The notes under the pieces were generated by a model that did no database searches, was not told where the DNA came from, and saw only the letters and a list, made by a program, of their open reading frames with translations. Of a DNA stretch of 64,000 nucleotides, positions 43,032 to 60,223 are shown piece after piece (the first letter of the stretch is position 1; each line of letters begins with the position of its first letter). The position numbers were made by a program, and so were the translations under genes. The stretch comes from Christensenellaceae bacterium (GTDB taxonomy: Bacteria; Bacillota; Clostridia; Christensenellales; CAG-138). The stretch is from assembly GCA_963667795.1 (NCBI GenBank), contig OY764017.1, forward strand, positions 1,460,079 through 1,524,078, read 5' to 3'.

Positions 43032-43157
43032 GTTTAGCCTCCCGGCCTGCGTCACAAAAAAGCTGCAAAAAGGCACGTAGTTTTGAATTATATCAGTAAT
43101 TCCACATCTTGACCAGTATCCCGCTTGAAAATTCCTACTTTATTTAAGGATTGCTGT

Positions 43158-43194
43158 CAAAAAAACAGGCATCCGGTTAATTTTCGGATGCCTG
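43158..43194 (-). terminator. terminator after the SH3b-repeat protein gene
   Basis: CAGGCATCCG..CGGATGCCTG hairpin followed by TTTTTTT on the minus strand. Confidence 0.8.
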
Positions 43195-43215
43195 ATCTGT
43201 ATTGTCGGATTGTTA

Positions 43216-43395
43216 TTATTCGCCTGCCGAGCTTGTTGGCGTTGGTGTCGGTGTTGGTGTGGGTGTGGGTGTGGGCGTCGGCGTCGGTGTTGCAGTTGGC
43301 GGTGCGGTCGGTGTAACGGTCGGTGCTACCGTTGGCGTCGCTGTCGGTGTAACGGTCGGTGCTGTCGTCGGCGTAGGTGTCGGCGTCGCCGCTGC
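43216..43395 (-). repeat. low-complexity (ACN-CCN)n Thr-Pro coding microsatellite-like tract
   Basis: The plus strand shows GGTGTTGGTGTGGGTGTGGGTGTGGGCGTCGGCGTCGGTGT.., encoding PTPTPTPTPTPT. Confidence 0.85.
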
Positions 43396-44586: not shown

Positions 44587-44730
44587 GAACCCCCTGGCGG
44601 AAATATCCGTCCATAGTGTACTATTCGTACTAATACGCTTGTATGCTACTGCCGTTTCCCGTTATTGTCAAGGCAAAAGACGAATTCTGGCGGTAGTTTC
44701 ACAAAAGGGTCACAATGCGACGACTTCCCA

Positions 44731-44781
44731 GAAAAAAAACAAAGCCCGAAATGCTGTGCAACACGGCACTTCGGGCTTTGT
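44731..44781 (-). terminator. terminator after the lipid kinase gene
   Basis: CAAAGCCCGAA..TTCGGGCTTTG hairpin followed by TTTTTTTT on the minus strand. Confidence 0.8.
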
Positions 44782-44793
44782 TATTGCGATATG

Positions 44794-45729
44794 CTATTCT
44801 TCTTTTTTCACTATTAAATTGATTGCCCTCTTCTGATTTTTAACCTCGATCGTTTCGCCGGAACCACCGCCCTCGTATTCGCCATCCAGCGCCCATGCGA
44901 CTGTTTCATCCGACTCGATCGTCAGCTTCTCACTTTGAAAAAAGTCGATGGAGTTCGCATCGAAGTTACCGGTCATCACCGCACTGATGGTCGCCTGCCA
45001 CTGAATCAACGTACCGGGTTCGCGTATCAAAACGACCTCAAACGCGCCGTCGTCCGTCTTTACCGTTCCGGCGGGGAATTTCAACAGTCCGGGAAAGCCG
45101 TAGATATTGCTGACCGCGCCGAACAGATACGCGCCTTCATAAACAGCGTTTCCAGAGGTGATTTTCATATGGATCGGCTTAATTTTCGGCAGGCTCATCA
45201 CACCGTCAAAGAAATACGCAGAGGGTCCGAAAACGTTCTTCAGATTTTGCGGCGTTGTATAGGATGTCCAAGAAAACGCACCGAACGCTGCAATGAACGC
45301 AAAACTCCGTGCATTGAACCACCCAAGGTCAATTTGCTTGATTCGTCCGGTTGCTATATCGTTCGCCGCAGTCATGATGTCGGTTGAAATGCCATGGCAA
45401 GATGAAAACACATTTGTGCTCCCCGCCGGAATGTATCCAAGTGGAACCGACGTGCCGCACCGCGCAATACCCGCAACCGTTTCGCTCAGCGTCCCATCGC
45501 CACCGACGCAAACGACCGCATCAAAATCGGTGGCATAACGCTCCGCAAGCCACGTTGCATCCCGCTGTGCATTGGTTACCATCAGCGTTACAAAATAGCC
45601 GTTATTCATAAAGATACGCGTGATCTCCGGAATATAGCGGAGTGCCTGTCGCCGTCCCGCAACCGGATTGACGATCAGCATCATGCGCCGATGAAGGATT
45701 GTTTCCGTAAGTGCTTCCATAAACGCCAA
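44794..45729 (-). CDS. diacylglycerol kinase-family lipid kinase (YegS/DagK type)
   Basis: 311 aa. MLIVNPVAG and VGGDGT motifs. Confidence 0.88.
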   Translation of the reverse strand: MAFMEALTETILHRRMMLIVNPVAGRRQALRYIPEITRIFMNNGYFVTLMVTNAQRDATWLAERYATDFDAVVCVGGDGTLSETVAGIARCGTSVPLGYIPAGSTNVFSSCHGISTDIMTAANDIATGRIKQIDLGWFNARSFAFIAAFGAFSWTSYTTPQNLKNVFGPSAYFFDGVMSLPKIKPIHMKITSGNAVYEGAYLFGAVSNIYGFPGLLKFPAGTVKTDDGAFEVVLIREPGTLIQWQATISAVMTGNFDANSIDFFQSEKLTIESDETVAWALDGEYEGGGSGETIEVKNQKRAINLIVKKEE

Positions 45730-46458: not shown

Positions 46459-47658
46459 TCATCTTTCGAGATTCTCTCTTTTTTTATTCTTTTTATGTTC
46501 CGATCCCTTCGGTTTACTTGCTTGGGGCTCTAAAGTTGCTATTTTATCCAGATGTGCGTTCAATGAGTTGATGGCTTCGTCCTCTTTAAATTTCGTCAGG
46601 TGGGTATAGACCGCAAGCGTCATCTCAATGTCTGAATGACCCAAAAAACGCTGAGCGGACTTTATATCAACACCGGCCTCATATAACATGGATGCGTAAG
46701 TGTGACGGAGCATATGCGCTGTGATGTTGTCAATCGCCTGTATCTTTTCACGGGAGCGGGAGGCATCCTTACCTCCCGCTTTCAGATTCAGGTAATGGCG
46801 GTAGCTGTTCCAAGCCCGTCGATACGCGGTATCGGACATCATTTGCCCCTTAGCATCAGGACAAACCAAAGGATTATGATGGGGCAGTTCGCGAAGAACA
46901 TCCACCAAAAAATTGGGGATGGGGACCTCTCGTGTTCCCGCTTTTGATTTTGGCTTTTTAACATGGGGTTGATTCTTGATCATGGTTATGGATTTATTCA
47001 CTAAGAGCGCTTTCCTATCAAGGTTGATATCCTTCCAAGTGAGAGCCAGCAACTCCCCGCGACGCAATCCGCAATACATCATGATCATGACGGCATGCCC
47101 CATACGATGCCCGCGCCATGTACGGTTGACCAACTCTTTTTCCTCTTCCGTCAAAGCCCGCCGCTCATGCGGTTCGATGGTCGGAACCTTGACGTTGGCA
47201 AAAACATTGCGCATAATCAGGTCATTTTCCACGCCAACATTCAATATCCGTACTGCGGTTTGCTTGGCTTTTTTCATCGTGCTGGTGGAAAGGCTGTCCT
47301 TGGCCATTTTGTTAATAATGCTCTGGAGATGATAGGGCTTTAAGTCTTTCAGCTTCATGTATTTCAGCGTCGGAAGCAGGTGTTTGTTGATCACACCTTT
47401 CTGCCGGTATATCCATTTTTCATTTGCGGTAGGGTTATATTGCGTCAGCCAGATTTCAGCCATTTCTCCGAAGGTAGTTTTATTTTCAGGAACGTAGATA
47501 CCTTGGTAAACTTGCTGTGTAATCTCCGCGACCTTCAACTCAAGTTCTTTTTTTGTTTTTCCATAAATAGTTTTTCGAAGATAAGCACCATTCTCTTTTC
47601 TTCCGACAATAATGTTCTTTTGATAAAGCCCATTCGACCGTCGTTTGTTTTTAGCCAC
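46459..47658 (-). CDS. int: tyrosine-type site-specific integrase
   Basis: 399 aa. Catalytic contexts GLRRGE (Arg), HMLRHTYAS (HxxR) and LAVYTH (Tyr), with an N-terminal SAM-like/arm-binding region. Confidence 0.93.
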   Translation of the reverse strand: MAKNKRRSNGLYQKNIIVGRKENGAYLRKTIYGKTKKELELKVAEITQQVYQGIYVPENKTTFGEMAEIWLTQYNPTANEKWIYRQKGVINKHLLPTLKYMKLKDLKPYHLQSIINKMAKDSLSTSTMKKAKQTAVRILNVGVENDLIMRNVFANVKVPTIEPHERRALTEEEKELVNRTWRGHRMGHAVMIMMYCGLRRGELLALTWKDINLDRKALLVNKSITMIKNQPHVKKPKSKAGTREVPIPNFLVDVLRELPHHNPLVCPDAKGQMMSDTAYRRAWNSYRHYLNLKAGGKDASRSREKIQAIDNITAHMLRHTYASMLYEAGVDIKSAQRFLGHSDIEMTLAVYTHLTKFKEDEAINSLNAHLDKIATLEPQASKPKGSEHKKNKKRENLER

Positions 47659-47869
47659 GATATGCCTCCTCGGTGTGCTCGCATTTCTCCAACCAATCCA
47701 GAAACTTATCCTTGTTCACGACTCGCCGTTTTCCAATCACAATGACCGGCAGGGATTTGGCATGTAGTATGTTGTAAGCAAATGCCCGCGATATACCAAG
47801 CATATTCATAATGTCATTGGCGTTGAGCATAATGGGAAGCTCTTCAATATTTTTGTATGTGGCTTTCAT
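47651..47869 (-). CDS. xis: excisionase-family helix-turn-helix DNA-binding protein
   Basis: 72 aa. LNANDIMNMLGISRAFAYNIL HTH; overlaps int by 8 nt; GGAGG RBS. Confidence 0.8.
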   Translation of the reverse strand: MKATYKNIEELPIMLNANDIMNMLGISRAFAYNILHAKSLPVIVIGKRRVVNKDKFLDWLEKCEHTEEAYRG

Positions 47870-47949: not shown

Positions 47950-48300
47950 AATATCAGGCAAGGGTGCGCGGCCATTCGTCGGTACGTTTGCACCACTGGG
48001 CGCACCCTTGCCTGAACCTCCGATTTGGTTCTATATGTTCTTGGAGCTTGTCCGGCGAACGGCGGCTAACCGCTCCATAGGAATCACACCTCCCCGTCAA
48101 CGACCGGGGCGCACCTTGGGACCTAACCTCAGCTATGCGCAAGTATCATTGTTTCCTCCGCATGTATCATCGCCGTAAATGCTGCCGGCATTTACTCATT
48201 GCATAGGTATCCTCGCTCGCGCCTTCAGGTGGTCATGGCGTACCTGCAATCTGGCTTTCCCTCCCCGGGACATGTGGGGAACGTACCGATTTTGCTCCTA
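47950..48300. ncRNA. GC-rich, ORF-free, highly structured region (candidate ncRNA or DNA recognition structure; class unknown)
   Basis: - Perfect 15-bp inverted repeat: 47955-47969 / 48000-48014.
- 8-bp hairpin: 48175-48195.
- 10-nt long-range complement: 47979-47988 / 48280-48289.
- No credible ORF on either strand. Confidence 0.4.
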
Positions 48301-48400: not shown

Positions 48401-48820
48401 TTACGGATGTTTTAAGAACATCACCATTCGTTGTAATCCTGTTCTAATTGACTTGCGCACTGAGCTTTCATCAACTTTCTCCAGCTTTGCTATGGCTCGC
48501 TTACTCAAGCCAAGAAAGTAATGGGCATAGATGCGTTTAGCTTGTTTGTCAGATAGGCGGTTCAGTGCTGAGTACAACTCCTGATTTGTGAGCTTTCGCT
48601 CATAAATTTCCGGAGGAGTCAGGACGACAAATATGATGTTGTTTTCAATTCCGTCATTTCGGTCGAGGGAATAATATGCCTTATGCCTATTTATACGTTT
48701 CTGATAGGCTTTATCACGACGTTCAAAAGCTTTCAGAGCTGCTGCGATGATATCTTCAACTTCGATAAAATGATCATGAGTATAAATAGGGTAGTAGTCC
48801 CTTAAATTGATTTTTATCAT
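48401..48820 (-). CDS. sigma-70 region-4-type regulator (Tn916 Orf7-like)
   Basis: ATG 48820 (MIKINLRDYY) has a GGAGG RBS. The C-terminal LSDKQAKRIYAHYFLGLSKRAIAKLEKVDESSVRKSI is a sigma r4 HTH. Confidence 0.75.
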   Translation of the reverse strand: MIKINLRDYYPIYTHDHFIEVEDIIAAALKAFERRDKAYQKRINRHKAYYSLDRNDGIENNIIFVVLTPPEIYERKLTNQELYSALNRLSDKQAKRIYAHYFLGLSKRAIAKLEKVDESSVRKSIRTGLQRMVMFLKHP

Positions 48821-49248
48821 TTGGAAACCTCCGTCTTTGATTTTTTTGAAGAACCAAAAAAGGAGGGGAGGAGAACGGATTTTGACAGATCCACTTTTTT
48901 TGCGATAAAAAAGGCCCGACTGGGTATAATCCAATTGGGCCCTGATAAAAACATTTCCTGTTATATAATGTATATGGGTACATAAACAGCCATAATCATG
49001 CGATACGTACTGATAATTTTGTCTTAATGGATTACTGGTTAAAGCATTACATAAGATGATGTCCGCTTCATCACGCCGTGCCGCTATTCAGTAGCGGCTG
49101 ATGACTTTTTACGGCACGAAAGATGCACATAAATACCCTCCAACCTCGTTAAGCTCGGAGGGCTATATTCATAATTAAGGTACAAGAAAAAGGCTCGCCA
49201 AACTCGCGTTTTTTTTATTTAGTGAGCGGGGATTATATATTAATCATC

Positions 49249-49632
49249 TTACTTCGTAATCGTTTCAATCTTCTCGAGGGTCTGTGCGCTAATAATATGC
49301 TCCATTGAACAGGCGTCTATTTCTGAACTCTTGCTGTCTACGCCCAAGACTTCGGTTAAGAATCTTTTGATAAGCAAATTACGGTTTTGTATATCGATCG
49401 CTTGTTCTTTGCCGGATTCCGTCAGCCGAATTGAACCGTAGTTCTCTTTTTGCACCAAACCGAAAGCCGCCAGTTTTTTTACAGTTCGTGATACAGTGGC
49501 TTTTGAAACACCAAGTCTTTTTGCAATATCCGTGACTCTTGCCTCGCCCTTGTTTTCACGAAGCTTCAGTATTATTTTTAAATAGTTTTCCAAAACAGGA
49601 GTCAGTGTCATTTTAACCGCCGCACCCTTCAT
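49249..49632 (-). CDS. DtxR/MntR-family metal-dependent repressor (short form)
   Basis: 127 aa. HTH (VTDIAKRLGVSKATVSRTVKKL) and metal-site-like EIDACSMEH. Its ATG overlaps the upstream stop (ATGA). Confidence 0.8.
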   Translation of the reverse strand: MKGAAVKMTLTPVLENYLKIILKLRENKGEARVTDIAKRLGVSKATVSRTVKKLAAFGLVQKENYGSIRLTESGKEQAIDIQNRNLLIKRFLTEVLGVDSKSSEIDACSMEHIISAQTLEKIETITK

Positions 49633-50243
49633 TGGTTCAAGGTAAACAACGCCATATAATTCGTCCCCAGATCGACATGATGAGTCTTTATAAAACCAGG
49701 GGCTTCAAGTTTCTTTTCAAGCTCCTCCGGAGATATCCGCATATGCAGGGGAGGGCCGAACGGGCTGTCGTCTTTTTTACACTCGATAACGGCCAGCTTT
49801 CCACCCGGCTTTAAGACCCGTTTGATTTCAGCATACAGTTTCGTTTTTTCATAAGCATCATTCAACGTGTGAAGCACGGTTGCAGCCAGACAGACATCAA
49901 TACAGTTATCCGTAATATCAATTCCCAGGCGAATATCCGAAACCACCGGATGAATGTTCTTCAGCCCGCGGGCAGCGCCTTCCTCGCATATTTTATTCAG
50001 CATGTCCGGCCAAAGGTCTAATGCGTATATGCTCCCCGAATCACCCACTATTTCTGCGGCGCGGAGTGAATAGTCTCCCGCGCCACATCCCAAGTCCAAA
50101 AAGGCATCTCCCTTTTTCAAAGCAAGTATCCCAAAAACCATTGCCGAATCATGCATATGAAAGCTGCTTGGCCCGCGCCTATGATGGTCCTTCCGATGGC
50201 AATGATGTCGCTGTCCGCCCCGGCAATGATAATCCCTGTTCAT
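49629..50243 (-). CDS. class I SAM-dependent methyltransferase with a His/Cys/Arg-rich N-terminal tract
   Basis: 204 aa. SAM motif I FLDLGCGAGDYS. The first ~35 aa are MNRDYHCRGGQRHHCHRKDHHRRGPSSFHMH. Confidence 0.8.
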   Translation of the reverse strand: MNRDYHCRGGQRHHCHRKDHHRRGPSSFHMHDSAMVFGILALKKGDAFLDLGCGAGDYSLRAAEIVGDSGSIYALDLWPDMLNKICEEGAARGLKNIHPVVSDIRLGIDITDNCIDVCLAATVLHTLNDAYEKTKLYAEIKRVLKPGGKLAVIECKKDDSPFGPPLHMRISPEELEKKLEAPGFIKTHHVDLGTNYMALFTLNQ

Positions 50244-50258
50244 ACAAGTTTCCTCCTT

Positions 50259-53200
50259 TTAAAGGTAGTACATAAACGATTCCACTTTAATGAGATCGTT
50301 CTCATTCTTATTTCCGTCAAAGGTCAGATTTAATACAGGCTTCGTATTTTCGTCTTCAAAGCCTTTCTGCAGCATCCCCAGCACGATTCCCGTGTTCTCG
50401 TAAATAGAGGCCGCTGTAATAATGCCATCAAGCCTGCGGGATTTGCATAGCTGTTTGGCCTGCCTGTATCTTCCGTGTGCGCCGGAAAAATAGCCAAGCG
50501 TTCCGTCTGCTCTTTGTATCAGTTCATCCGGCTCCGTTTCAAATGGGGTCCAGCCGGACAGCGCGTTGGATATGGCTAGCATATTGTTTTTATGCTCCGC
50601 AAGCCTTTGCGCCATGAGCGGCGACAGGTCGCTCTTGTTTTGATCGGCATAATCCTTCCACATCATCCACATGGCTTCGCCCAAAGGGCTGTATACGACC
50701 CGGTGTCCTTTGCTTTCAAGCTCCCTGAACGTATAGTTGTTAAGCAACTCGTCAAACAGAATGTTGACTTCGCCAACCGCCAGAATCGTTTTATCGAATC
50801 TTTTTTCATCCAGCTCTTTTGACACGACCTGTGCTATCTGCTTTATGCGCTCCAAACCAAGATGATCTTTCCCTATCAGGTCAACAAATGTACGCAAATG
50901 CTTTTCCCTTGATTCTCGGGGCGCGTTCCAGACAACATCTCCGGCAAGCAGCCCCAAGCTGATTTCACGGAAGGTTTTTTCGTCTTCGCAGAGCACATCC
51001 TCTAAGAAGGGCGACACCACATCCACGCCTTCAAAGCCCTCCTCATCCAGCTTTGTCCGAAGCATCCGGCCGTACTGCCCGTTCGTTTCCGCTCCTTCGT
51101 TCTGGGGAATCAGGAGGGTTGTATGATCCGCCTGCGACCTGCCAAGTTTATTCAGCATCGTAAATACATTCCCCAGCAAGGCCGTAAGAGAAAAGTACTC
51201 TTCCGTGATCGTGAACTTGCGGCCAGCTTCTATGGAAGTCCGGCTTGAAGCGGGCAGCGCTTTTGCGTTGATTCCTTTGCGCAGCAGGATTTCTTTAAAT
51301 ATCTCGGAATACGGATACAAGTATGGTAAATATACGGTTTTCTTACCATCAATATCACTTAGGCGGCTCTTTATATTCGTTTTCCTGTGCGTCATACTGT
51401 CGATATACGTTTTTATATCGGCGGCCTTCTTGGTCTTGATGTTTTTCAGGCTGTTGATAAAGGCCTCCACACGGGTAATGATGCCGACGCCGGAGGAATG
51501 TTCATCAATTTCAATGTGCAGATAGGGTTTGCCTCTCATTTCCTCCCTGAAGTAATGCGACAGAACAGAATCCGGGCCGCACCCATGATGGCTGAGGAAA
51601 ATTGCATACAGGTTGGGATGCCGGCGAATCAGCTGGGCAGGCTCTAAGATATGCTGTCCAAACGGCCAGAACATGTTGGGATGCTCCTTCGAAATATCCC
51701 CCTCCGGCAAATCGTAGAACGGCAGCACCTTATAACCCATATCCGCAAGCTTTTCCGGTATGCCCATATTCAGTACCGGGTCGGCAACGCCGTATATCTT
51801 CGAAATTATGACAAACGCGATTTCGTCAGGCTTTAACTGGCTCATGATTTTTTTGCTGTTTTGCGCCATTCGCTCTTCAAAGCGATCGGCCGCCTCCAAT
51901 CCCTTCTGCAGCGCTTTTTTCGTTTGTTCGGGCGATTTTCCAAGCTGTTCTCCAATTTCAAGGAAGCTTTTCATAATGGATTCCTGCCCCACATGAAAAG
52001 CCATAGTGGGCGACAGCAGAGCAATCCCTTTTTTATCAAGCTCCATGGCCCTGTTCATCACCTTGAAAGCAAGCTGCATGAAGGCGCAGCCATAGTTTTT
52101 TCGGCTCGCGGAACCCGGGTGGTCAACAGTGACCAGATCCGGGAAAAAGATATAATCCACCTTTTTCTCCATTAACTCGGCGACATGCCCGGTAATAAGC
52201 TTCATGGGGTAGCAGGTTTCATCCATCGCATACTGCTGACCCAGGGCAATTGTATTTTCGTCGGTTGGATCGGATAAAATCACATTCAAGCCCAGCTCTT
52301 TAAAAAACGCGTTGAACATGGAAAACATTCCGAAAGTAAACAAGGCTCTTGGAATTCCGACTGTTTTTTTCGAAGATGGCTCCGGCCTATAATCTTCAAA
52401 TACAAGCTTTTTGACATTGTCGCTGAAATCATCCTTGCACTTTTCTTTCTTATACTTGTTCAGCTGAGTCAAACTATCAACGGTAATATCAAAGCCCTTG
52501 AAAGCGCTCTGCTGCCCGGTCATTTCTTCTTTGGTAAAAAGAGCGGCTCCGTAAGCCCCCGTCACGCTGAAAAACGACGGGACGATGATTTCTTTACCCG
52601 TTACGGCCCTGAACGCGTTTATGACGCCCTGATTGTAGGCAAGCCCTCCCTGAAAGAAGATTTTGCTGCCGACCTTCTTCTGACCAACAACCCGGTCAAG
52701 GTAGTTATTGACGATCGAGTAACATAACCCGGATACGATGTCTTTAAGCTCTGTACCCCGGGACAGGCAGGCGGCAATACTTGTTTCAATGAACACGGTA
52801 CACCGCTCGCCCAGGCCGATTGGCTTGTAGCTTGAAAGGGCGATATCGCCAAACTCCTCAATGGGGATATTAAATTTCTTTGCCTGTTCTTCGATGAAGG
52901 AGCCGGTACCGGCCGCGCATATTTTGTTCATCTGGAAATCGACGACGGCGCCTTTTTCTATGCTGATGAATTTTGAATCCTGCCCGCCGATTTCAAAAAC
53001 GGTATCCACACTGCCGTCGATATGAACCGCCGCTTTTGCCTGCGCCGTGATTTCATCCTTGACAACGTCGGCCCCGATCATTCTGCCGATCATATGCCTG
53101 CCGGAGCCGGTTGTGCCAGCGCCGATGATCCTTATCTTTTTTCCGTACTCATTCTTTATTTCCCTGAACCCTCTCAGTACAGCATCAACAGGATTACCAA

Positions 53201-54251
53201 GCGTCCTGAGATATTTATAGGCAATGAGCTCTTCATTTTCATTCATTAATACAAGGTTCGTGCTGGTTGAACCAACATCGACGCCCAGATAACAGCCAAT
53301 CGTGCCGCTTTCTGCGGAAATGTCCTTGTATACATGCTTGCCAAGGCTGTCGTTTTGTCCGTACGAAAACAGTGGGGCCAGTTCAATTTCGTCCCCGTTG
53401 TTTGCCAGCCATTCTTCCGCCCGCTCAGTTAATGATAAAATCGTATTCATGTTGACAGGCCAGCGCTCTTTGTTTGCCATAACAGCCGCGCCCAAAGCGC
53501 CGACGCATCCCAAATGGCAGGGGAAAACAAGGTCTTCATCCGCCAGCTTCAAAACATTCTTCAGCGCGGTAATAATGCCTTCGTTGTGGGCGACGCCGCC
53601 GGAAAACAGGATCGGTTTAGCGACGGGAAGCTTTTTCATGACCGTTCCCTTGTAGTTGCGGACAAGCGCGTACGCCAGCCCCAGCAGTATATCCGGAGCC
53701 GGAACGCCTTCCTGCTGATGGTGCGTAATATCCGTTTTCGCAAACACGCTGCAGCGCCCCGCGATCCTCGGAATGGACTTCGCTTTTTTGATTAGCTCCG
53801 AATAATCCGTAAGCTTTAAATTCAGCCGGGACATCTGCTCCTCCAGAAAAGAGCCCGTCCCCGACGAACAATTTGAGTTCATTGAAATTTCAATGCGGGA
53901 CTTATCGCTGCCACCGAGTCCGGTGATATATCTTGCGCTTTCCCCGCCGATATCAATAATGGAGCCGATCTTCAGGTTTTCCGCGATCGCGCCTTCCACA
54001 ACGGCCGTTACGCCATTGATGGATTTGACGGCGTCGTCTGCGCTTAAGAATTTGCTTCCGCTTCCCGTTACGGCCCCGTACCCGATTTCCTGCGGATCAA
54101 ACGATGCCGATAGTTCCTTAAGAATGCTGGTCAGCGTATTTTTTATCCGGCCCTTATGCATTTGATAACGATTGAATCGGGTTTCATTCTTTTCGTCGAT
54201 CAGGATGACCTTCAACGATGAATAGCCGATGTCGATTCCGATGCTGTACAT
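50259..54251 (-). CDS. 1330-aa fusion: two BcrA/BadF/HgdC-type activase ATPase modules plus an HgdB/BcrC-like (DUF2229-type) dehydratase/reductase-component region
   Basis: - Two ASKHA starts: IGIDIGYSSLK and LGVDVGSTSTN.
- Each ASKHA module has cluster-Cys contexts: NCSSGTGSF/RCSVFA and ICAAGTGSF/RCTVFI.
- The C-terminal ~700 aa carry DETCYPMK and YLHIEIDEHSSG. Confidence 0.8.
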   Translation of the reverse strand: MYSIGIDIGYSSLKVILIDEKNETRFNRYQMHKGRIKNTLTSILKELSASFDPQEIGYGAVTGSGSKFLSADDAVKSINGVTAVVEGAIAENLKIGSIIDIGGESARYITGLGGSDKSRIEISMNSNCSSGTGSFLEEQMSRLNLKLTDYSELIKKAKSIPRIAGRCSVFAKTDITHHQQEGVPAPDILLGLAYALVRNYKGTVMKKLPVAKPILFSGGVAHNEGIITALKNVLKLADEDLVFPCHLGCVGALGAAVMANKERWPVNMNTILSLTERAEEWLANNGDEIELAPLFSYGQNDSLGKHVYKDISAESGTIGCYLGVDVGSTSTNLVLMNENEELIAYKYLRTLGNPVDAVLRGFREIKNEYGKKIRIIGAGTTGSGRHMIGRMIGADVVKDEITAQAKAAVHIDGSVDTVFEIGGQDSKFISIEKGAVVDFQMNKICAAGTGSFIEEQAKKFNIPIEEFGDIALSSYKPIGLGERCTVFIETSIAACLSRGTELKDIVSGLCYSIVNNYLDRVVGQKKVGSKIFFQGGLAYNQGVINAFRAVTGKEIIVPSFFSVTGAYGAALFTKEEMTGQQSAFKGFDITVDSLTQLNKYKKEKCKDDFSDNVKKLVFEDYRPEPSSKKTVGIPRALFTFGMFSMFNAFFKELGLNVILSDPTDENTIALGQQYAMDETCYPMKLITGHVAELMEKKVDYIFFPDLVTVDHPGSASRKNYGCAFMQLAFKVMNRAMELDKKGIALLSPTMAFHVGQESIMKSFLEIGEQLGKSPEQTKKALQKGLEAADRFEERMAQNSKKIMSQLKPDEIAFVIISKIYGVADPVLNMGIPEKLADMGYKVLPFYDLPEGDISKEHPNMFWPFGQHILEPAQLIRRHPNLYAIFLSHHGCGPDSVLSHYFREEMRGKPYLHIEIDEHSSGVGIITRVEAFINSLKNIKTKKAADIKTYIDSMTHRKTNIKSRLSDIDGKKTVYLPYLYPYSEIFKEILLRKGINAKALPASSRTSIEAGRKFTITEEYFSLTALLGNVFTMLNKLGRSQADHTTLLIPQNEGAETNGQYGRMLRTKLDEEGFEGVDVVSPFLEDVLCEDEKTFREISLGLLAGDVVWNAPRESREKHLRTFVDLIGKDHLGLERIKQIAQVVSKELDEKRFDKTILAVGEVNILFDELLNNYTFRELESKGHRVVYSPLGEAMWMMWKDYADQNKSDLSPLMAQRLAEHKNNMLAISNALSGWTPFETEPDELIQRADGTLGYFSGAHGRYRQAKQLCKSRRLDGIITAASIYENTGIVLGMLQKGFEDENTKPVLNLTFDGNKNENDLIKVESFMYYL

Positions 54252-54273
54252 TTATTTTCCTCCAAGTGATTAT

Positions 54274-54717
54274 TTATTTTTTGTATGTGCATTTTTTACA
54301 TATTCCGAAAAACTGTACCCGGTGGTCCTTTACGGTAAACCCCATTTCCGATAACAGCTTTTTTTCAAAGAGCTCCAGCATATCCTCTTCCACATCGATC
54401 ACGTCACCGCAAACCTCACAGACCAGATGATGGTGCTGATGCTTTTCCTGTGAGCCCAGTATTTGAAACCGCATGCAGCCGTCATCCAGCATAATGTGAT
54501 GAACAAGCCCGAGCTTTTCAAACAGCTGCAGGTTGCGGTATACCGTCGCAAGCCCAATTCGGGGATAAGCCTTTTTGACCTCGTCGTATATTTCTTCCGT
54601 GCATAAATGCTTATCCTTCTCATCCTGAATGATTTCAAGTATTGCCTGTCGCTGTGCCGTCAGCTTATATCCGCCTGAATGGAGCATGCTCTCAAAATCA
54701 GCCGTATTCATATTCAT
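54274..54717 (-). CDS. Fur-family metalloregulator (copy 1)
   Basis: HQHHHLVCEVCG and CKKC motifs with a winged-helix N-domain. ATG 54717 lies 8 nt after GGAGG; the ORF track extends to 54774. Confidence 0.85.
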   Translation of the reverse strand: MNMNTADFESMLHSGGYKLTAQRQAILEIIQDEKDKHLCTEEIYDEVKKAYPRIGLATVYRNLQLFEKLGLVHHIMLDDGCMRFQILGSQEKHQHHHLVCEVCGDVIDVEEDMLELFEKKLLSEMGFTVKDHRVQFFGICKKCTYKK

Positions 54718-54760
54718 AAGCATGACCTCCCCATCAATACTGTTGAACCATCTGTAAAAG

Positions 54761-54779
54761 AAAATGATTATCATTTACT
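54761..54779. promoter_or_regulatory. Fur-box-like palindrome in the divergent fur/crp promoter region
   Basis: AAAATGATTATCATTTAC contains the AATGATTATCATT core. It overlaps the -35 (TTACTT) of a plus-strand promoter whose TATAAT is at 54797-54802. Confidence 0.5.
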
Positions 54780-54848
54780 TTTCAATGGTATTCTAGTATA
54801 ATCAAAGCAAAAATAGAGTATCGCCAGATACTTTTTCAGGAAGTTTTT

Positions 54849-55541
54849 TTGATGGATAAGATAAAGTATAGATTATCAATATTGCAAAAATGCGCTTTAT
54901 TCAAAGATAAATGCACAGATGAAATAGAAGCCCTGCTATCCAACATCAATTTGAGGATAAGCAGTATAACTGAAAATGAAGTCATATTTTCGCCCCTGGA
55001 AGATGCCGATAAAATGGGGATTATACTATCGGGCACTGTGGACGTACAAAAGCTTTTCCCCAAAGGCAAGGTTGTGATGATAGAAAGAAAGAAAACCGCC
55101 GACATGATCGCCGAATCATCGATATTTACCAAGCTGGGTTACTATTCCGATACTTTTGTTGCCTCCAAGCCGTGTGAGGTGCTGCTGCTAACAAAAAAAG
55201 AGCTGCTCAAACTATTCAAGCTTAACAACACAATATTGCTGAATTATCTGGAGCATGTCTCCAATTCGACACTCATACTGAAAAACAAAATTGGAATCCT
55301 GTCGCTGGATTCCATCCGGGAGAAAATATGCGGATATTTAATTCATGATTATAAGATGAACGGTTCTGCTGCCATTACGCTTCCGTTTTCCAAGAAGGAG
55401 TGGGCGGAGTACATGGATGTTTCAAGGACATCGCTGTCCCGTGAGCTAAGGGGCCTTAAGGAGGACGGGATATTGTCTTTCGATAAACGGACAATTGAAA
55501 TCAGGGATATGGACAGGCTGGAGAAGGCGCTTTCATTATAG
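54849..55541 (+). CDS. Crp/Fnr-family transcriptional regulator (copy 1)
   Basis: 230 aa. cNMP-binding-like beta-barrel plus C-terminal HTH (EWAEYMDVSRTSLSRELRGLKEDGIL). Confidence 0.85.
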   Translation: MMDKIKYRLSILQKCALFKDKCTDEIEALLSNINLRISSITENEVIFSPLEDADKMGIILSGTVDVQKLFPKGKVVMIERKKTADMIAESSIFTKLGYYSDTFVASKPCEVLLLTKKELLKLFKLNNTILLNYLEHVSNSTLILKNKIGILSLDSIREKICGYLIHDYKMNGSAAITLPFSKKEWAEYMDVSRTSLSRELRGLKEDGILSFDKRTIEIRDMDRLEKALSL

Positions 55542-55547
55542 CTGATG

Positions 55548-56270
55548 TTAATGCACCAGAGCATTATCCTTCTCCATTATCCCGATGATTTCACTTCTTG
55601 TTTCAATCAGATCCCTGTCTGTTAAGCCTCTTTCCCGTTTTGGTTTGCTTAAACAAAATTCCCTCTCTGCCTTTGCCGGCCTGTTGGAGAGCAAAAGAAT
55701 CCTGTCGCCGAGCAACAGCGCTTCATCAATTTCATGCGTCACAAATACGATAGTCTTTTTCGTGCTGCTCCAAAGGGTGAGTAAATAGCGTATCATGCCG
55801 ATCCTTAAGTTGTAATCGAGAGACTTAAAGGGCTCATCCATCAGCAGCAGGTCGGCTTCATAGTTGAAGGCTCTTGCTATGGAACACCGCTGACGCATTC
55901 CGCCGCTTAATTCATGCGGGTAAAAGCCTTCGAATCCTTTAAGCCCGACTTTTTCAATCAGCTCCATACAGTATTCATGAGAGCTTTGCTTGTTAACGAT
56001 ACGAATATTCTCATATGCGTCCTTCCATGGCAAAAGCCTGTCTTCCTGAAAAACGTAACTTGTATTTTGACTGTTATTCATCACCTTTCCACCGGAAGGA
56101 TGGGTGAGTCCGGAAATAATATTCAATATCGTAGATTTGCCACAGCCAGACGGTCCTATGATGCATAATATTTCTTCTTTGGCCGCTTCGATGGATAAGT
56201 CCTGCAAAACACGAACGTCTCCAAAGTGCTTTTCTACGCTTTGCAGTTTCAGTATCGTTCTATCGCTCAT
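55548..56270 (-). CDS. ABC transporter ATP-binding protein, NitT/TauT (sulfonate/nitrate/taurine-type) family
   Basis: Walker A GPSGCGKST, signature LSGGMRQR, Walker B LLLMDEP. ATG 56270 has an AAGGAG RBS. Confidence 0.88.
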   Translation of the reverse strand: MSDRTILKLQSVEKHFGDVRVLQDLSIEAAKEEILCIIGPSGCGKSTILNIISGLTHPSGGKVMNNSQNTSYVFQEDRLLPWKDAYENIRIVNKQSSHEYCMELIEKVGLKGFEGFYPHELSGGMRQRCSIARAFNYEADLLLMDEPFKSLDYNLRIGMIRYLLTLWSSTKKTIVFVTHEIDEALLLGDRILLLSNRPAKAEREFCLSKPKRERGLTDRDLIETRSEIIGIMEKDNALVH

Positions 56271-57099
56271 GGCTTTTTCTCCTTTTTGGTTTGTATTCAA
56301 ATAGCTTAGAAGTTATCTTTTGAAACAGAAAGCAAAGCAGAACCACGATGATTCCCCATGCAAACACCCTGTCCGTTTCAAGGTTCATTCTGGCGTCGGT
56401 AATTTGTGAGCCAAGCCCGGTGCTGGCGCTTAATACTTCTCCCATAACCACCAGCTTCCACCCAAAACTAAAAACGGTAATGAGCCCGGCTTTAAAGTAA
56501 GCCCCTAAAGACGGCAAAACTATTTTCGTGATCATTTCTGTTTGTGTAAACTTAAACGCCTTTCCCATTTCAACGAGCTTTGGGTCTATGTTTTCAAATC
56601 CCTCTTTAATTGTGATGGCCATAACCGGGGCGCTCCCTATAAAGACAATAAAAATGGTCGCTTTTCCATTCAGCCCAAACCATATCATGGCAATCGCCAT
56701 GTACAAAATAGGTGGTATCGCTTGAACAATATATACAAGCGGCTCAAAATATTCTTTTAGCTTTTTACTGCTCCCCATCAGAATCCCCAATATAGTCCCG
56801 GTTATTATTGACACCAGCAGGGCCAATACAAGCCTTTGCAGCGTGATGGCGACTTCCGGCAACAGCTTCCCACTTTGAGCGATTTCAAGCAGAGTTTCAA
56901 GCGTCAAAACGGGGCCGGGAAGAACCAGCGGCGTGTATACCATTGATAATCCCTGCCATGCCAGCAGGAGGATGCCCAGAGACAAAAAAATCCTTATATT
57001 GAGCTTCTTCCTGCCTGATATATCTGCAATCGTTTTTTCTTTTTTTATATTATCAGTGTTCGGACTCATTAACGGCTTCACTTGTTGTATCCCTTTCAT
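56260..57099 (-). CDS. ABC transporter permease (NitT/TauT family)
   Basis: 279 aa, about 6 TM segments, binding-protein-dependent transport inner-membrane-component pattern. Confidence 0.85.
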   Translation of the reverse strand: MKGIQQVKPLMSPNTDNIKKEKTIADISGRKKLNIRIFLSLGILLLAWQGLSMVYTPLVLPGPVLTLETLLEIAQSGKLLPEVAITLQRLVLALLVSIITGTILGILMGSSKKLKEYFEPLVYIVQAIPPILYMAIAMIWFGLNGKATIFIVFIGSAPVMAITIKEGFENIDPKLVEMGKAFKFTQTEMITKIVLPSLGAYFKAGLITVFSFGWKLVVMGEVLSASTGLGSQITDARMNLETDRVFAWGIIVVLLCFLFQKITSKLFEYKPKRRKSHER

Positions 57100-57278
57100 T
57101 TATAAAAACTTCTTGTAAAATTTGGCCAGATACAATACACGGGACATCTGCGCAGCCAAGCAGCCTCGCTTATCCCGTGTACTGAATAGATGACCAATAC
57201 CCAATATTCTTTTCTATTTCATAGCGCAGATAAATCCTTTTCTCTGTCCTTTATACGCCTGCACCATGCCTTCGTCTA

Positions 57279-57446
57279 CTAATTTGACCATATCTGCAGC
57301 AGATACATACTTAGCATCTTTTCAATTTCGGACGGAGAACATCCGCATTCTCCGCTGTAAGAATACGGATTAATGAAGGCGGTCTCTTCATCCCAGGAAG
57401 CCATTACGTTCACGCTTTCAATCAACATTTTCCGTCCGTCTTTCAT
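57279..57446 (-). CDS. small hypothetical ORF (55 aa) in the SBP-permease gap
   Basis: MKDGRKMLIESVNVMASWDEETAFINPYSYSGECGCSPSEIEKMLSMYLLQIWSN. No convincing RBS; it may be a gene remnant. Confidence 0.2.
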   Translation of the reverse strand: MKDGRKMLIESVNVMASWDEETAFINPYSYSGECGCSPSEIEKMLSMYLLQIWSN

Positions 57447-57513
57447 TCGACAATTCAAATGATTTGTGTTTGAAGCGCCTTCTGTTTCATCTGCGCATCC
57501 TCGCTGCTTCCAT

Positions 57514-58563
57514 TTATTCGGCTGTATAATAGAAGCTGTCGTCGGGCATCTTGTCCCCAATGCTCTCAGGCTTTAGTTCCAATAAGACCTTGAAATATTC
57601 TTCAACATCATTCTTGGCGTCAGCCGCAGATTTATAATCCAAGCAAAAGCCCGGCATAGCTGCGGCGATCAGCTCTGCGTTTGCATTCAGATATGTGTTC
57701 GCAAGAGCGCCCGCTTCATCAGGGTTTTCAACCGTCCATTTTATCGCGTCGGAAAATTTCTTATTAAAATCCAGCACAACGCTTTCATTCTCGCTTAAGT
57801 AATCAGAATTGACTACGGTACAATTACCCGGCATTGAGTACGCTTCCCCCTGCGTCAGCTTCCAGTCTTCGGCAAACTCAGAGATCACCCTATAACCGTC
57901 CACATTTTTAAGGTTTGAAGTCACGAATGGCTGAGCGTCAACAGCATACTGAATCGTCCCCGCCGCAATTAACTGCGCGATCTCGGCGTGAGACGAATAG
58001 ACCACCTCAACATTTTTCCCGATCTCAAGTCCATTTTGACTTAGGAAGTATTGCGTCATTATATCCGGGACTGAGCCTTTCGCTGGAACGTATAGTTCCT
58101 TTCCCTCAAGGTCTTTCCAGCTGTTACAGTCGGGGTCGGTTGTACTCAGATACATTCCGCCCCAACCAAACGCATTGACCATCTTAACGTCTATGCCTTT
58201 ATTTTTGAGATTGGCGGCGGTATGTACAGGCACAATGAGAATCCCATAATCCCCGCCGGAAGCCAATGCCATCATAGCCTCCATGTCGCCGTAAAGCTGG
58301 AGATCAAGCTTTATGTTCTCGCCCATGCAATCGTTCTCGATCATTCTCAATACCGGAATTGTAGCGGGCGATTTTGGCGCAACTACGGTAACAACTGTTT
58401 GAGTATTCGGGTCATTTGTTTTCGTATCGTCAGCACTCGTGTCTGCGTTTGCAGTGCTTGTTTCCGTATTCCCCGGGTTTGCTTCCTGTATGTCTGCGGT
58501 TTGTCCGCATCCGGCGAATATGCTGATACACAATATAAGCAATATTGCTATTATTCTTTTCAT
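57514..58563 (-). CDS. ABC transporter substrate-binding lipoprotein (NMT1/THI5-like, NitT/TauT family)
   Basis: Signal peptide with lipobox (MKRIIAILLILCISIFAGC) and a low-complexity T/D/N linker. ATG 58563 is preferred over 58596. Confidence 0.8.
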   Translation of the reverse strand: MKRIIAILLILCISIFAGCGQTADIQEANPGNTETSTANADTSADDTKTNDPNTQTVVTVVAPKSPATIPVLRMIENDCMGENIKLDLQLYGDMEAMMALASGGDYGILIVPVHTAANLKNKGIDVKMVNAFGWGGMYLSTTDPDCNSWKDLEGKELYVPAKGSVPDIMTQYFLSQNGLEIGKNVEVVYSSHAEIAQLIAAGTIQYAVDAQPFVTSNLKNVDGYRVISEFAEDWKLTQGEAYSMPGNCTVVNSDYLSENESVVLDFNKKFSDAIKWTVENPDEAGALANTYLNANAELIAAAMPGFCLDYKSAADAKNDVEEYFKVLLELKPESIGDKMPDDSFYYTAE

Positions 58564-58676
58564 GTCTTGTTTCTGCCTCCTTATTGATATTGACATGCAT
58601 TTTCATTTAGGATATATTATCTTTGGTAAAAGTACAGTATCTGTGGATACAATATTGAAATTGGGATGAAACGCAA

Positions 58677-59354
58677 ATGAATGATGTTATTGAGGCGTGC
58701 TGCCATTGTGAAATATTTAAAGGCCTTGACAAGGCCAGGATTCAACATGTTTTATCTATTGCCGACTGCCAGATAAAAACCTATGATAAAAACGAATTCA
58801 TATGCAGGGAAGACCAATCCTCGGTTTATGTTGGCATTATTATTTTCGGCTGCGTTGAAATACAGAAAATATTGCCGTCCGGCAACATTGTATGTTTATT
58901 TAATAGAAATAAAGGCGATATGTTCGGGGGGGCTGTTGTTTTTGCTGGTAAAGCTTCATACCCTTGCGATGTATTTTCAAGAGATAAAAGCAAAATACTG
59001 TTTCTGCACAAGAAGGATATTTTAGAAATGTGCAAATGTTCATTTGTAGCAAATAATTTACTAAAAGCTTTTGCTGATAGTATTTTTAATTTTGAAAAAA
59101 GAGTGGAACTATTTTCATATTCATCTATTCAAAAAAAGATAGCGTTTTATCTGCTTGATGAGCAAAAAGCGTTAAATGTAAATATGATTCGCTTACCTTT
59201 CACAAAAAAGGCGTGGGCGGAATACTTATGCGTATCACGTCCATCGCTTTGCCGAGAATTAAAGAAGCTTAGCAATGACAATATAATAAAAGTAAATGGA
59301 AATATTATTTCTATTAAAAGCGAAGAAGGTCTCATAAGCTTACTGCAACAATAA
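58677..59354 (+). CDS. Crp/Fnr-family transcriptional regulator (copy 2, Cys-rich N-terminus)
   Basis: 225 aa. The HTH AWAEYLCVSRPSLCRELKKLSNDNII is paralogous to copy 1. The N-terminus is MNDVIEACCHCEIF. Confidence 0.85.
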   Translation: MNDVIEACCHCEIFKGLDKARIQHVLSIADCQIKTYDKNEFICREDQSSVYVGIIIFGCVEIQKILPSGNIVCLFNRNKGDMFGGAVVFAGKASYPCDVFSRDKSKILFLHKKDILEMCKCSFVANNLLKAFADSIFNFEKRVELFSYSSIQKKIAFYLLDEQKALNVNMIRLPFTKKAWAEYLCVSRPSLCRELKKLSNDNIIKVNGNIISIKSEEGLISLLQQ

Positions 59355-59804
59355 TTATTCTTTATCCTTGCAGTTCTTACACAACCCGAAAAATTTCAGA
59401 CGGTGATCCTTTATCATAAAATCATAATTATCAACGATATATTGTTCTAAGTCTTCCAATAAATCGCTTTTAATATCTGTTATTGAGCCGCATTTCGTAC
59501 AAATCAAATGATGGTGGGTATGTTCTTCGTTATCATTGACAAGCTCATATCTGGTAAAGCCATCCTCAAAGTTTGTCCCTTGAACAATCTGCATTTTTTC
59601 AAGCATGACCAGTGTTCTGTAAACGGTAGATTGTCCAATGTTTATTTGTTTCTGTTTAAGTAATTCACAGATATCATTACTGCTTAAGTGTGAACCGAGA
59701 TGTGCTGATAAAACATCCAACACTAACTGACGCTGCCCTGTATATTTATATCCGAACTGATGAAATTTTTCCTTAATATTTGATATTTTAAAATTATTAT
59801 TCAT
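59355..59804 (-). CDS. Fur-family metalloregulator (copy 2)
   Basis: 149 aa. HTHHHLICTKCG and CKNC motifs. Its stop codon abuts the crp copy 2 stop. Confidence 0.85.
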   Translation of the reverse strand: MNNNFKISNIKEKFHQFGYKYTGQRQLVLDVLSAHLGSHLSSNDICELLKQKQINIGQSTVYRTLVMLEKMQIVQGTNFEDGFTRYELVNDNEEHTHHHLICTKCGSITDIKSDLLEDLEQYIVDNYDFMIKDHRLKFFGLCKNCKDKE

Positions 59805-60223
59805 GTTGATTTTCCTTTAGACTTTTCTTTGAAAATGCATGTCAGTTTCATTATACTAAATAAGATGTATTAGTCAACTCATGGAAGGCGCTTTGCACCT
59901 TGGTTAAGGCGAATCAACAGGGCTATATATGAGCAGCTGCTGTAGCGTTGTACAATATCTTGTTGGGGTCTATGTACCATTTTTTTACCCTCTGTTGCAC
60001 AGACCACATATTAAAGTATTTACCTTTCTTAGCCACCAGCTCGCCGTGTTTTTCGTTTTTAAAGATTGCTTACCATCCAATTTACACATACGGACGAGTA
60101 TAAGCATGTTTATAGGAAAGTATTCAGTCTTTGCAACCTGATACATAGTAAAGAATACCAGTAGTAATGGTCGGAAGCAGTCATCCGGCAGATCTCCCGA
60201 CCATAATCTATTTCTTTACTTGG

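Follow-up and report, generated by a model that had tools for sequence, protein, structure and literature searches.

A mobile ten-gene cassette encoding a fused, ATP-dependent [4Fe-4S] reductase and a partner methyltransferase in a Christensenellaceae bacterium

What does a self-activating, ATP-driven reductase act on when its gene is carried by a mobile element, among genes for metal-responsive regulators and beside that of a methyltransferase? This question was raised by a stretch of 64,000 nucleotides (hereinafter referred to as the window) from a Christensenellaceae bacterium (assembly GCA_963667795.1, contig OY764017.1, positions 1,460,079 to 1,524,078). An initial annotation, made from the sequence alone, had described four minus-strand genes as a unit: a Fur-family regulator gene (fur1) and the genes for a 1330-amino-acid (aa) fused protein (hereinafter BIG), an S-adenosylmethionine (SAM)-dependent methyltransferase (hereinafter MT), and a DtxR/MntR-type repressor. 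All four open reading frames (ORFs) were found where that annotation had placed them (Table 1), with gaps of 22 nt between fur1 and BIG and 15 nt between BIG and MT and with the MT stop and the dtxR start overlapping as ATGA, and every peptide motif quoted for them was present in the translations. The genes and their spacing were thus real, but the functional unit was larger, comprising a ten-gene cassette with the order fur2, crp2 (divergent), NMT1-type binding lipoprotein, permease, ATPase, crp1 (divergent), fur1, BIG, MT, and dtxR. The identical gene order was found in two other loci, L081, where the BIG homologue was 95% identical, and L082 (Desulfoscipio).

We tentatively propose that BIG and MT perform the ATP-driven reduction and methylation of an imported metal-associated compound, a plausible reading that we hold with reservation. 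The kind of enzyme and its fused layout are already known. The distinction of a clade with Tyr/Glu/Glu (Y/E/E) in place of a cysteine triad, the partnership of MT with the fusions, the regulatory logic that combines metals with Crp, and the cassette with its mobility are presented here as new; no paper was found on any of them.

The fused reductase and its clade

From its sequence and a structure model, BIG is predicted to be an ATP-dependent [4Fe-4S] reductase that activates itself within one chain and belongs to the superfamily containing benzoyl-CoA reductases (BCR), 2-hydroxyacyl-CoA dehydratases (HAD), and PlsA. The architecture given in the initial annotation was borne out by profile searches, which identified two BcrAD_BadFG domains (E = 4e-69, 233 bits), DUF2229 (E = 2e-59, residues 630-844), and an HGD-D tail (E = 1e-7) in Pfam, and TIGR00241 in NCBIfam (273 bits against a cut-off of 125). 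The ASKHA activator modules occupied residues ~1-260 and ~320-575, and the DUF2229/HGD-D acceptor half residues ~630-1330. The ATPase motifs and the cluster-ligand cysteines, the latter of which had been described as kept in BIG, were intact rather than degenerate across 84 homologues: D7, G9, G102, G218, G219, D325, G327, G422, G423, and G535 were invariant or nearly so, and the activator cysteines C128, C167, C445, and C484 were invariant in all 84 sequences. The acceptor cysteines C680, C722, and C891 were invariant in all clades.

The activator modules aligned (E = 1e-33 to 1e-36) with those of HAD (HgdC/HgdAB, HadI/HadBC) and class I BCR (BcrABCD, BzdNOPQ, MbdONQP), which inject a low-potential electron by means of ATP, and had the same cluster cysteines. 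In HgdC (1HUX) and related activators, all four of these had cluster cysteines as their aligned counterparts, and C445 and C484 also in HadI (4EHT) and MbdQ. For the acceptor half, a structure model covering residues 600-1330 (predicted local distance difference test score (pLDDT) of 71, with low-confidence loops) gave as top Foldseek matches the double-cubane cluster protein (DCCP; 7YYL, 6ENO), BzdNO (8S02), and MbdON (9G87), in line with the HAD/BCR/double-cubane fold suggested earlier, although a profile search of this half against PDB sequences returned no true match. Unlike HAD and BCR, in which the activator is a separate homodimer or subunit pair and the substrates are CoA thioesters, BIG is one chain, and no genes of CoA metabolism were found near it. 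From the DCCP/DCCP-R system (YjiM/YjiL in Escherichia coli), which provided the best structural match, BIG differs in being fused to its activator. The [8Fe-9S] cluster of DCCP (NF040772) is associated with a 7-Cys motif (Haft, preprint). BIG was rejected as a double-cubane protein, since its acceptor half has three conserved cysteines and no 7-Cys motif and NF040772 was not among its NCBIfam matches.

One database protein (P0005, 1485 aa, 77% identical) runs Fur into BIG as a single product. The probable cause is the loss of a stop codon or an error of gene calling, not a true fusion; the protein nevertheless confirms that fur and BIG are adjacent in a further lineage.

According to the initial annotation, no substrate had been assigned to the fused architecture, and the ATPase of characterized relatives was a separate homodimer. 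Published work contradicts both statements. The anaerobic plasmalogen synthase PlsA/PlsR has the fused layout and is encoded by a single gene in Enterococcus faecalis, Lactococcus cremoris, Bifidobacterium longum, and Listeria (PMC12838417, PMC13159169, PMC9702350), with CPE1194/1195 as PlsA/PlsR of Clostridium perfringens, and Ger, the glycerol ester reductase of Thermotoga maritima (Tmari_0479) and Desulfatibacillum alkenivorans, likewise carries a fused ATPase in the architecture BBDHDDH (PMC13159169, PMC12838417). PlsA and Ger have been tested experimentally and have a defined lipid substrate (PMC12838417, PMC13159169), and BIG matches the fused BBD(H) layout (PMC13159169). Both are anaerobic, ATP-dependent, oxygen-sensitive BCR/HAD members, which share with BIG the two ASKHA modules fused to a DUF2229/HGD-D acceptor, the four activator cysteines, and the first acceptor triad.

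BIG could therefore be a plain PlsA/Ger orthologue that converts the sn-1 ester of a glycerolipid to a vinyl or alkyl ether, with its neighbours incidental, as its identical architecture, its homology over the full length, and the experiments on PlsA and Ger would allow. We regard this as highly improbable. A homologue search recovered a tight family of ~1330-aa proteins, 55-95% identical to BIG, from Clostridia, Desulfobacterota, the spirochaete Pleomorphochaeta, Halanaerobiales, and the methanogens Methanolobus and Methanofollis, and a genome scan added members from Methanospirillum, Bacteroidales, and Synergistaceae, together with many proteins that were 32-47% identical. In a neighbour-joining (NJ) tree of the 84 homologues, this family was monophyletic, and its sister was a group of ~1290-aa proteins (Paraclostridium, Tepidibacter, Pelosinus). 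The Ger group is probably represented by a clade of its own, made up of 55 sequences of ~1400 aa (Brocadia, Scalindua, Syntrophaceae, and others), and the single Listeria gene was outermost. The Listeria gene served as the PlsA anchor by orthology taken from the literature (PMC9702350), and the clade read as Ger served as the Ger anchor. BIG was 24% identical to Listeria PlsA and 35-36% identical to Ger-like sequences, and is 70-150 residues shorter than PlsA and Ger; the best 120 matches of a search with the Listeria protein were all from Listeria, Paenibacillus, and Bacillus.

The clades also differed at a second, C-terminal cysteine triad. Column comparison showed C/C/C in 55/55 Ger-like and 13/13 PlsA-like sequences, whereas the window family had Y1019/E1055/E1285 in 17/17 sequences and in 16/16 of a second, partly overlapping sample. 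Tyr/Glu/Glu was also found in the sister clade and in all but one member of the intermediate group. H711, H867, H889, R1261, and R1263 were common to the window family and the sister clade, while H888 was present only in the window family and H918 also in the Ger-like clade. By analogy with two-cluster HAD enzymes, the lost triad may correspond to a second [4Fe-4S] site.

PlsA/Ger orthology was rejected on the separate NJ clade, the low identities, and the replacement of the second triad. The neighbourhoods agree: MT, Fur, Crp, and the ABC importer were linked to the BIG clade and to 0/56 PlsA/Ger-like loci, and BIG was never linked to lipid genes. Methanogen lipids are isoprenoid ethers, so the presence of the BIG family in methanogens argues against a glycerolipid ester-to-ether role. 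The PlsA/Ger assignment would leave the window gene unexplained, because BIG belongs to another clade, lacks the second triad, and has other neighbours. A lipid function of BIG is very unlikely, and its clade is distinct, uncharacterized, and partnered with a small SAM methyltransferase. Homology surveys now count any protein of BBD architecture, archaeal ones included, as a PlsA/Ger ether-lipid enzyme; proteins of the Y/E/E clade, a large one with a wide spread across bacteria and methanogens, are unsuited as ether-lipid markers because of the missing second triad, the coupling to MT, and the metal-regulated importer neighbourhoods.

The methyltransferase partner and neighbourhoods in other lineages

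The functional link between MT and BIG is genuine, since their adjacency is conserved and natural fusions exist. MT was found within 10 kb of BIG in 14/18 family loci and directly downstream of it in 10, against 0/56 PlsA/Ger-like loci and 1/11 sister or intermediate loci. Natural BIG-MT fusions were represented by two cluster representatives, P0091 (1 contig) and P0103 (3 contigs), in which the His/Cys/Arg-rich N-terminus of MT serves as the linker; one of the fusions adjoins FmdE. The linkage of the methyltransferase proposed in the initial annotation was thus upheld in the neighbourhood survey. Its linkage of all four genes stood in part: the order Fur-BIG-MT-DtxR was found only in Clostridia-type modules, while the BIG-MT and MT-DtxR pairs were more widespread, the latter also occurring in L081-L084, L086, L093, and L143.

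The MT family was tight (48-89% identity), with S26, S27, C118, T122, V123, H125, G163, P164, and R169 invariant in the family alignment (A2). These residues lie in the motifs RGPSSFxMHD, IDVCLxATVLH, and FGPP...R, and the cysteine of IECKK was nearly invariant. The His/Cys-rich N-terminus, to which attention had been drawn, was present but poorly conserved and predicted to be disordered (pLDDT <50 for residues 1-21 of an AlphaFold2 model with a mean of 87.5); conservation was instead found in RGPSSFxMHD, C118, H125, and the IECKK cysteine. The closest solved relative was an uncharacterized Aquifex methyltransferase (3DH0) with neither of the conserved cysteines.

The best NCBIfam matches of MT were arsenite methyltransferase models, plus a weak match to TehB. 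The pair might accordingly detoxify or volatilize an inorganic metal or metalloid (As, Se, Te, Sb, Hg-like), which BIG would reduce and MT would methylate in the manner of ArsM or TehB. The two conserved cysteines and the frequent N-terminal ones would suit this role, as would two ABC exporter pairs and an ArsP_1 permease 3' of MT in Vallitalea, a CMD/AhpD-like gene adjoining the P0103 fusion, and MatE and PadR neighbours at other loci. We nevertheless regard it as quite unlikely. MT scored 69.8 against an ArsM cut-off of 263, over profile positions 73-181 only; its profile match to ArsM structures (39 bits) was limited to the Rossmann core; and ArsM was not among the top 50 structural neighbours, so that an ArsM-like identity was rejected. 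No ArsR or MerR regulator was found, and the cassette has an importer, not an exporter. Furthermore, inorganic metalloid reductions have no need of an ATP-energised electron.

Neighbours were clustered without bias around MT in 99 loci. The commonest families were FmdE (34), TrmO/TsaA-like proteins (TrmO_N; 26), PadR (16), Peripla_BP_2 (14), DtxR (13), NikA/CntA-like SBP_bac_5 (13), FecCD (11), MatE (10), and a CooC-like ATPase (8). The Methanolobus locus contained genes for a Nik/Opp ABC system, CbiX, BIG, PadR, TrmO_N, FmdE, MT, and DtxR, and that of Desulfosarcina contained BIG, MarR, SufC, SufBD, CooT, a CooC-like ATPase, FmdE, MT, and DtxR. In Desulfonema, tetrapyrrole methylase genes were followed by a cobalamin riboswitch directly 5' of MFS-FmdE-BIG-MT, and a second cobalamin riboswitch preceded two genes for TonB-dependent receptors. 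Cobalamin riboswitches flanked or preceded FmdE-BIG-MT in four loci in total (Desulfonema L085, Desulfobacterium L055, and the metagenome loci L138 and L159; Table 1), and none was found in the archaeal or Bacteroidales loci searched.

The SAM-using enzymes, MatE, ABC, and MFS exporters, NikA/CntA-like and Fec-type importers, and metalloregulators among these neighbours resemble metallophore clusters. BIG and MT, elsewhere with FmdE, TrmO-like, and CooC-like proteins, might accordingly make a metallophore or metallocofactor that is exported and re-imported under Fur/DtxR control. This biosynthetic role appears distinctly improbable: exporters and scaffold-building enzymes are absent from the window cassette and from several minimal loci, where BIG and MT are accompanied only by an importer, and reduction by an ATP-driven radical enzyme would be an uncommon step in biosynthesis.

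Several further features of these neighbourhoods were observed. Several of the cobalamin riboswitches preceded TonB-dependent-receptor-like genes and an O-methyltransferase gene with a weak BchU-like match. A recurrent cassette of PadR, TrmO_N (TsaA-like), FmdE, and MT was found in metagenomes and methanogens beside Peripla_BP_2/FecCD and NikA-like ABC systems (L003, L084, L096-L101, L104, L109, L119, L123, L127, L148, L167, and others), and no literature was found on it. A CooC-like ATPase gene was located directly 5' of MT in 7 loci, and in L086 the two were separated by FmdE. Methanolobus vulcani B1d harbored two members of the BIG family on different contigs (L005, L084), one with FmdE, MT, and DtxR, and the other surrounded by a TrmO-like gene and Peripla_BP_2/FecCD/ABC genes but lacking an MT gene within 10 kb.

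Regulation, import, and proposed function

BIG is predicted to be co-regulated with the ABC importer through Crp-type and Fur-type operators. GTATC-N4-GATAC occurred in two exact copies in the window, both in the divergent promoter regions. The Crp-type box 5' of (fur-)BIG was conserved in 14 loci, including those of the sister clade, and the second box was also present in L081, L082, and L092; a divergent Crp gene was kept in L002, L081-L083, L087, L088, L091, L092, L102, L116, and L124. Putative Fur-type boxes (AATGATTATCATT, TGAAAATGCATGTCA) were located ~50-55 bp from each Crp box and 5' of fur2, and their orthologous positions were conserved. At the position orthologous to the fur1 box, ATGATAATCAT was found in L081, L082, and L083 and, if one mismatch was allowed, in L092 and L102, and the box 5' of the binding-protein gene (TGACATGCATTTTCA) was kept in L081, L082, and L092. 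Strong sigma-70-like promoters touching the Fur and Crp boxes were predicted for fur2, crp1, and crp2. The fur1-BIG operon had no good -35 element, as expected for an activator-dependent promoter. Wiring of BIG to regulators of the Fur, Crp, and DtxR types, the first and last of which had been proposed, was thus supported through conserved putative operators and synteny. The cassette holds two Fur and two Crp paralogues, and the Fur-type boxes occurred in two sequence variants, AATGATTATCATT and TGAAAATGCATGTCA; each Fur may have its own operator.

Both Fur proteins matched Bacillus-type Fur in NCBIfam below the cut-off of 220 bits (Fur1, 152.9 bits as best match, with Pfam FUR at E = 1e-36; Fur2, 169 bits). 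The Fur translation keeps the CxxC pairs CEVC and CKKC, and the open frame of fur1 extends to 54774. For the DtxR-family protein, both Pfam domains scored above cut-off, and the best NCBIfam match was MntR (104.5 bits against 153). As judged by eye, a CxxEH motif resembling the primary site of DtxR was kept, and the ligands of the MntR and ancillary sites were replaced.

The regulators could also indicate that Crp/Fnr (HcpR-like) and Fur/PerR-like proteins control a module for stress response or repair, in which BIG would use ATP-driven electrons to reduce a nitrogen-oxide-derived or oxidatively damaged species or to restore a damaged metallocentre to its reduced state. Both Fur proteins matched PerR models as well, more weakly; HSP20 genes flank the BIG-MT pair in Pleomorphochaeta, and SufBC adjoins it in Desulfosarcina. 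Moreover, the Crp operator and the type of ABC transporter recur in the sister clade, whose gene on a Paraclostridium plasmid lies with two hcp and two hemerythrin genes, NifU, and DUF1858. We consider such a module unlikely, as it leaves the importer and the methyltransferase without a role, both Fur paralogues scored higher with Bacillus-type Fur than with PerR, and the hcp context was found in one paralogue locus only.

That plasmid locus (L090; Paraclostridium bifermentans plasmid pHD0315_2-2, 8212-21846) encodes a sister-clade reductase annotated with 1282 aa and 41% identical to BIG, with Y/E/E and no MT. Its cluster further contains genes for a Crp/Fnr regulator, an ABC transporter of the same type, two cupins, and ferredoxin, and looks like a nitrosative-stress or Fe-S repair locus.

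The importer genes encode a NitT/TauT-type system. In NCBIfam, the ATPase matched TauB (160 bits) and SaoA (151 bits, cut-off 360), both below cut-off, and the permease matched SaoP best (111 bits, cut-off 295), with TauC also below cut-off. The most similar permease and ATPase were thus those in the selenocysteine-assisted organometallic (SAO) model, in which an imported compound is reduced by a HAD-family reductase (Haft, preprint). An SAO transporter was rejected on these scores and on the permease, which has a conserved Met and no conserved gating Cys or Sec, and no SaoL, SaoC, SaoT, SaoD, or SaoE genes were found in the window cassette. The sole solved relative of the binding protein was 3HN0, its true start is likely M12 (at 58563), and its four-Cys site was kept only among close orthologues. 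The binding-protein and permease genes are 415 bp apart, and a 50-aa ORF (MLIESVNVMASWDEETAFINPYSYSGECGCSPSEIEKMLSMYLLQIWSN, ~57279-57431, minus strand) was observed in this gap, inside ORF 57279-57560; the 50-aa ORF has a gene call in L081, but the cassette of Desulfoscipio lacks it.

In the reading that we favour, the reduction and methylation of an imported metal-associated compound, the two ASKHA modules would form an intramolecular pseudo-dimer with one bridging [4Fe-4S] cluster on C128, C167, C445, and C484, and ATP hydrolysis would push a low-potential electron to a single acceptor [4Fe-4S] cluster on C680, C722, and C891. The replacement of the second Cys triad by Tyr/Glu/Glu and family His/Arg residues suggests a polar substrate site (Y/E/E with H711, H867, H888, H889, R1261, R1263, and H918), possibly hard-metal- or anion-binding, instead of a lipid-ester site. 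The substrate would be a small compound taken up by the co-regulated ABC importer; BIG would reduce it, and MT, docked or fused at the C-terminus of BIG, would methylate the reduced product or the released ligand. Expression would require a Crp/Fnr-type activator at GTATC-N4-GATAC, with Fur-family repressors acting as a gate, and the operon itself also encodes a repressor of the DtxR family. As for the class of substrate, our guess is a metal-bearing chelate, metallophore- or tetrapyrrole/corrinoid-like, that is processed so that its metal can be obtained or handled in metal-limited anoxic habitats. The suggestion of the initial annotation, ATP-driven reduction coupled to methylation under metal control, survives in a strengthened form, although it is not proven.

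Several points weigh against this reading. The literature searches yielded no experiment or paper on the BIG clade, the PlsA/Ger papers and Haft's SAO preprint being the only relevant ones. The substrate class is read from the neighbours alone, which vary by lineage, and the Rfam search of the window detected no riboswitch in the cassette. The Y/E/E residues were placed in one site from the alignment and not from coordinates, with the half-model at a pLDDT of 71. In the reverse comparison, BIG was within 10 kb in 9/30 metagenome MT loci flanked by at least 5 kb on both sides, which indicates that MT is able to act without BIG in cis. The window importer does not belong to the classical systems for haem, B12, or siderophores, and no solved relative of its binding protein is informative. 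Fur and DtxR both fall short of every equivalog cut-off, so that profiles do not fix their metal specificity, and the genes of the sister clade beside hcp, hemerythrin, and NifU suggest nitrosative-stress or repair chemistry.

A narrower version of our proposal, which must be called doubtful as it stands, is that BIG and MT strip metal anaerobically, by a hitherto unrecognized route, from very stable imported chelates (haem, corrinoids, metallophores). At the single [4Fe-4S] cluster beside the Tyr/Glu/His site, the ligand would receive the ATP-energised electron and so be dearomatised or reduced, and SAM-dependent methylation would trap the reduced ligand, whereby the metal would be freed. Such stripping would parallel the ChuW type of haem degradation but without radical-SAM chemistry, and would be spread on conjugative elements in gut Clostridia and present also in sulfate reducers and methanogens. 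The likeness to ChuW/HutW/HmuW is a functional analogy only: these Fur-regulated, anaerobic enzymes free iron by SAM methyl transfer and reductive opening of the chelate, but they are radical-SAM HemN-like proteins with no homology to BIG or MT, and the window cassette is without a haem-type importer.

The mobile element and its features

The cassette is the cargo of a putative conjugative or integrative element. Compared with L081 (4370-15013), its DNA was 92.3% identical across 10,659 nt, and the likeness ended at both borders. The flanking backbones were unrelated, with integrase, excisionase-like, sigma-like, and NlpC/P60 genes in the window and relaxase, coupling protein, serine recombinase, and TnpV genes in L081, indicating that a discrete cassette has moved between mobile elements. 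The horizontal mobility asserted in the initial annotation was thereby supported, and the element context proposed there agreed with the integrase, excisionase-like, and sigma-like genes on one side, the NlpC/P60 gene on the other, and a drop in GC content. Being compact and mobile, with predicted operators and a dedicated binding protein, the cassette offers a tractable system for seeking a new substrate class of ATP-driven [4Fe-4S] reductases.

Table 1. Features of the window, given in window coordinates, and cobalamin riboswitches of other loci, given in the coordinates of each locus.
Feature	Position	Strand	Basis or remark
Tyrosine integrase	46459-47658	-	Element backbone
Excisionase-like helix-turn-helix gene	47651-47869	-	Element backbone
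pemK RNA motif	48075-48152	-	Rfam RF02913, 54.5 bits (gathering score 34.8)
Sigma-70 region-4-like gene	48401-48934	-	Element backbone
Discrete cassette, 10.65 kb, 10 genes, element cargo	49233-59883		DNA match to L081
DtxR/MntR-family repressor, 127 aa, without SH3 domain	49249-49632	-	Pfam Fe_dep_repress + Fe_dep_repr_C
MT, class I SAM methyltransferase, 204 aa, His/Cys/Arg-rich N-terminus	49629-50243	-	Pfam Methyltransf_31/25/11
BIG, 1330-aa fused protein	50259-54251	-	Pfam BcrAD_BadFG x2, DUF2229, HGD-D
fur1, Fur-family regulator 1, 147 aa, leads fur-BIG-MT-dtxR operon	54274-54717	-	Pfam FUR, 125.9 bits
Fur-box-like palindrome AATGATTATCATT, 5' of fur1, overlaps -35 of crp1 promoter	54763-54775		
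Inverted repeat GTATCGCCAGATAC, probable Crp-family operator of fur-BIG operon	54818-54831		
crp1, Crp/Fnr-family regulator 1, divergent from fur-BIG	54849-55541	+	Pfam cNMP_binding + HTH_Crp_2
ABC transporter ATPase, NitT/TauT type	55548-56300	-	Pfam ABC_tran
ABC transporter permease	56260-57099	-	Pfam BPD_transp_1
Substrate-binding lipoprotein, NMT1/SsuA-like	57514-58596	-	Pfam NMT1; lipobox FAGC
Fur-type box TGACATGCATTTTCA, 5' of binding-protein gene	58591-58605		Repeat I1
Second GTATC-N4-GATAC box GTATCTGTGGATAC, divergent promoter region of ABC operon and crp2	58637-58650		
crp2, Crp/Fnr-family regulator 2	58677-59354	+	Pfam
fur2, Fur-family regulator 2, 149 aa	59355-59804	-	Pfam FUR, 115 bits
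Fur-type box TGAAAATGCATGTCA, just 3' of strong fur2 promoter (59877-59850)	59830-59844		
NlpC/P60 cell-wall hydrolase, 602 aa	61518-63326	-	Pfam + NCBIfam
Cobalamin riboswitches, L085	5008-5191, 12754-12937		
Cobalamin riboswitches, L055	20312-23883		
Cobalamin riboswitch, L138	12631-12818		
Cobalamin riboswitch, L159	10671-10855		

The limits of the element could not be fixed, because its right end lies outside the 64-kb window. No terminal repeats were found at the ends of the cassette, no tRNA insertion target and no tRNA gene were identified anywhere in the window, and a comparison of the backbone DNA with known plasmids gave no match. The NlpC/P60 hydrolase gene was taken as the start of the transfer region of the element. 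The pemK RNA motif, located between the excisionase-like and sigma-like genes, was the sole Rfam match in the window. At ~46 kb, beside the integrase gene, a fall in GC content from ~0.52 to ~0.44 marks the element's left end. Beyond it, the flanking chromosome (42132-45729) has genes for a PAS-GGDEF protein, a diacylglycerol kinase, and a protein in which SH3 is repeated five times.

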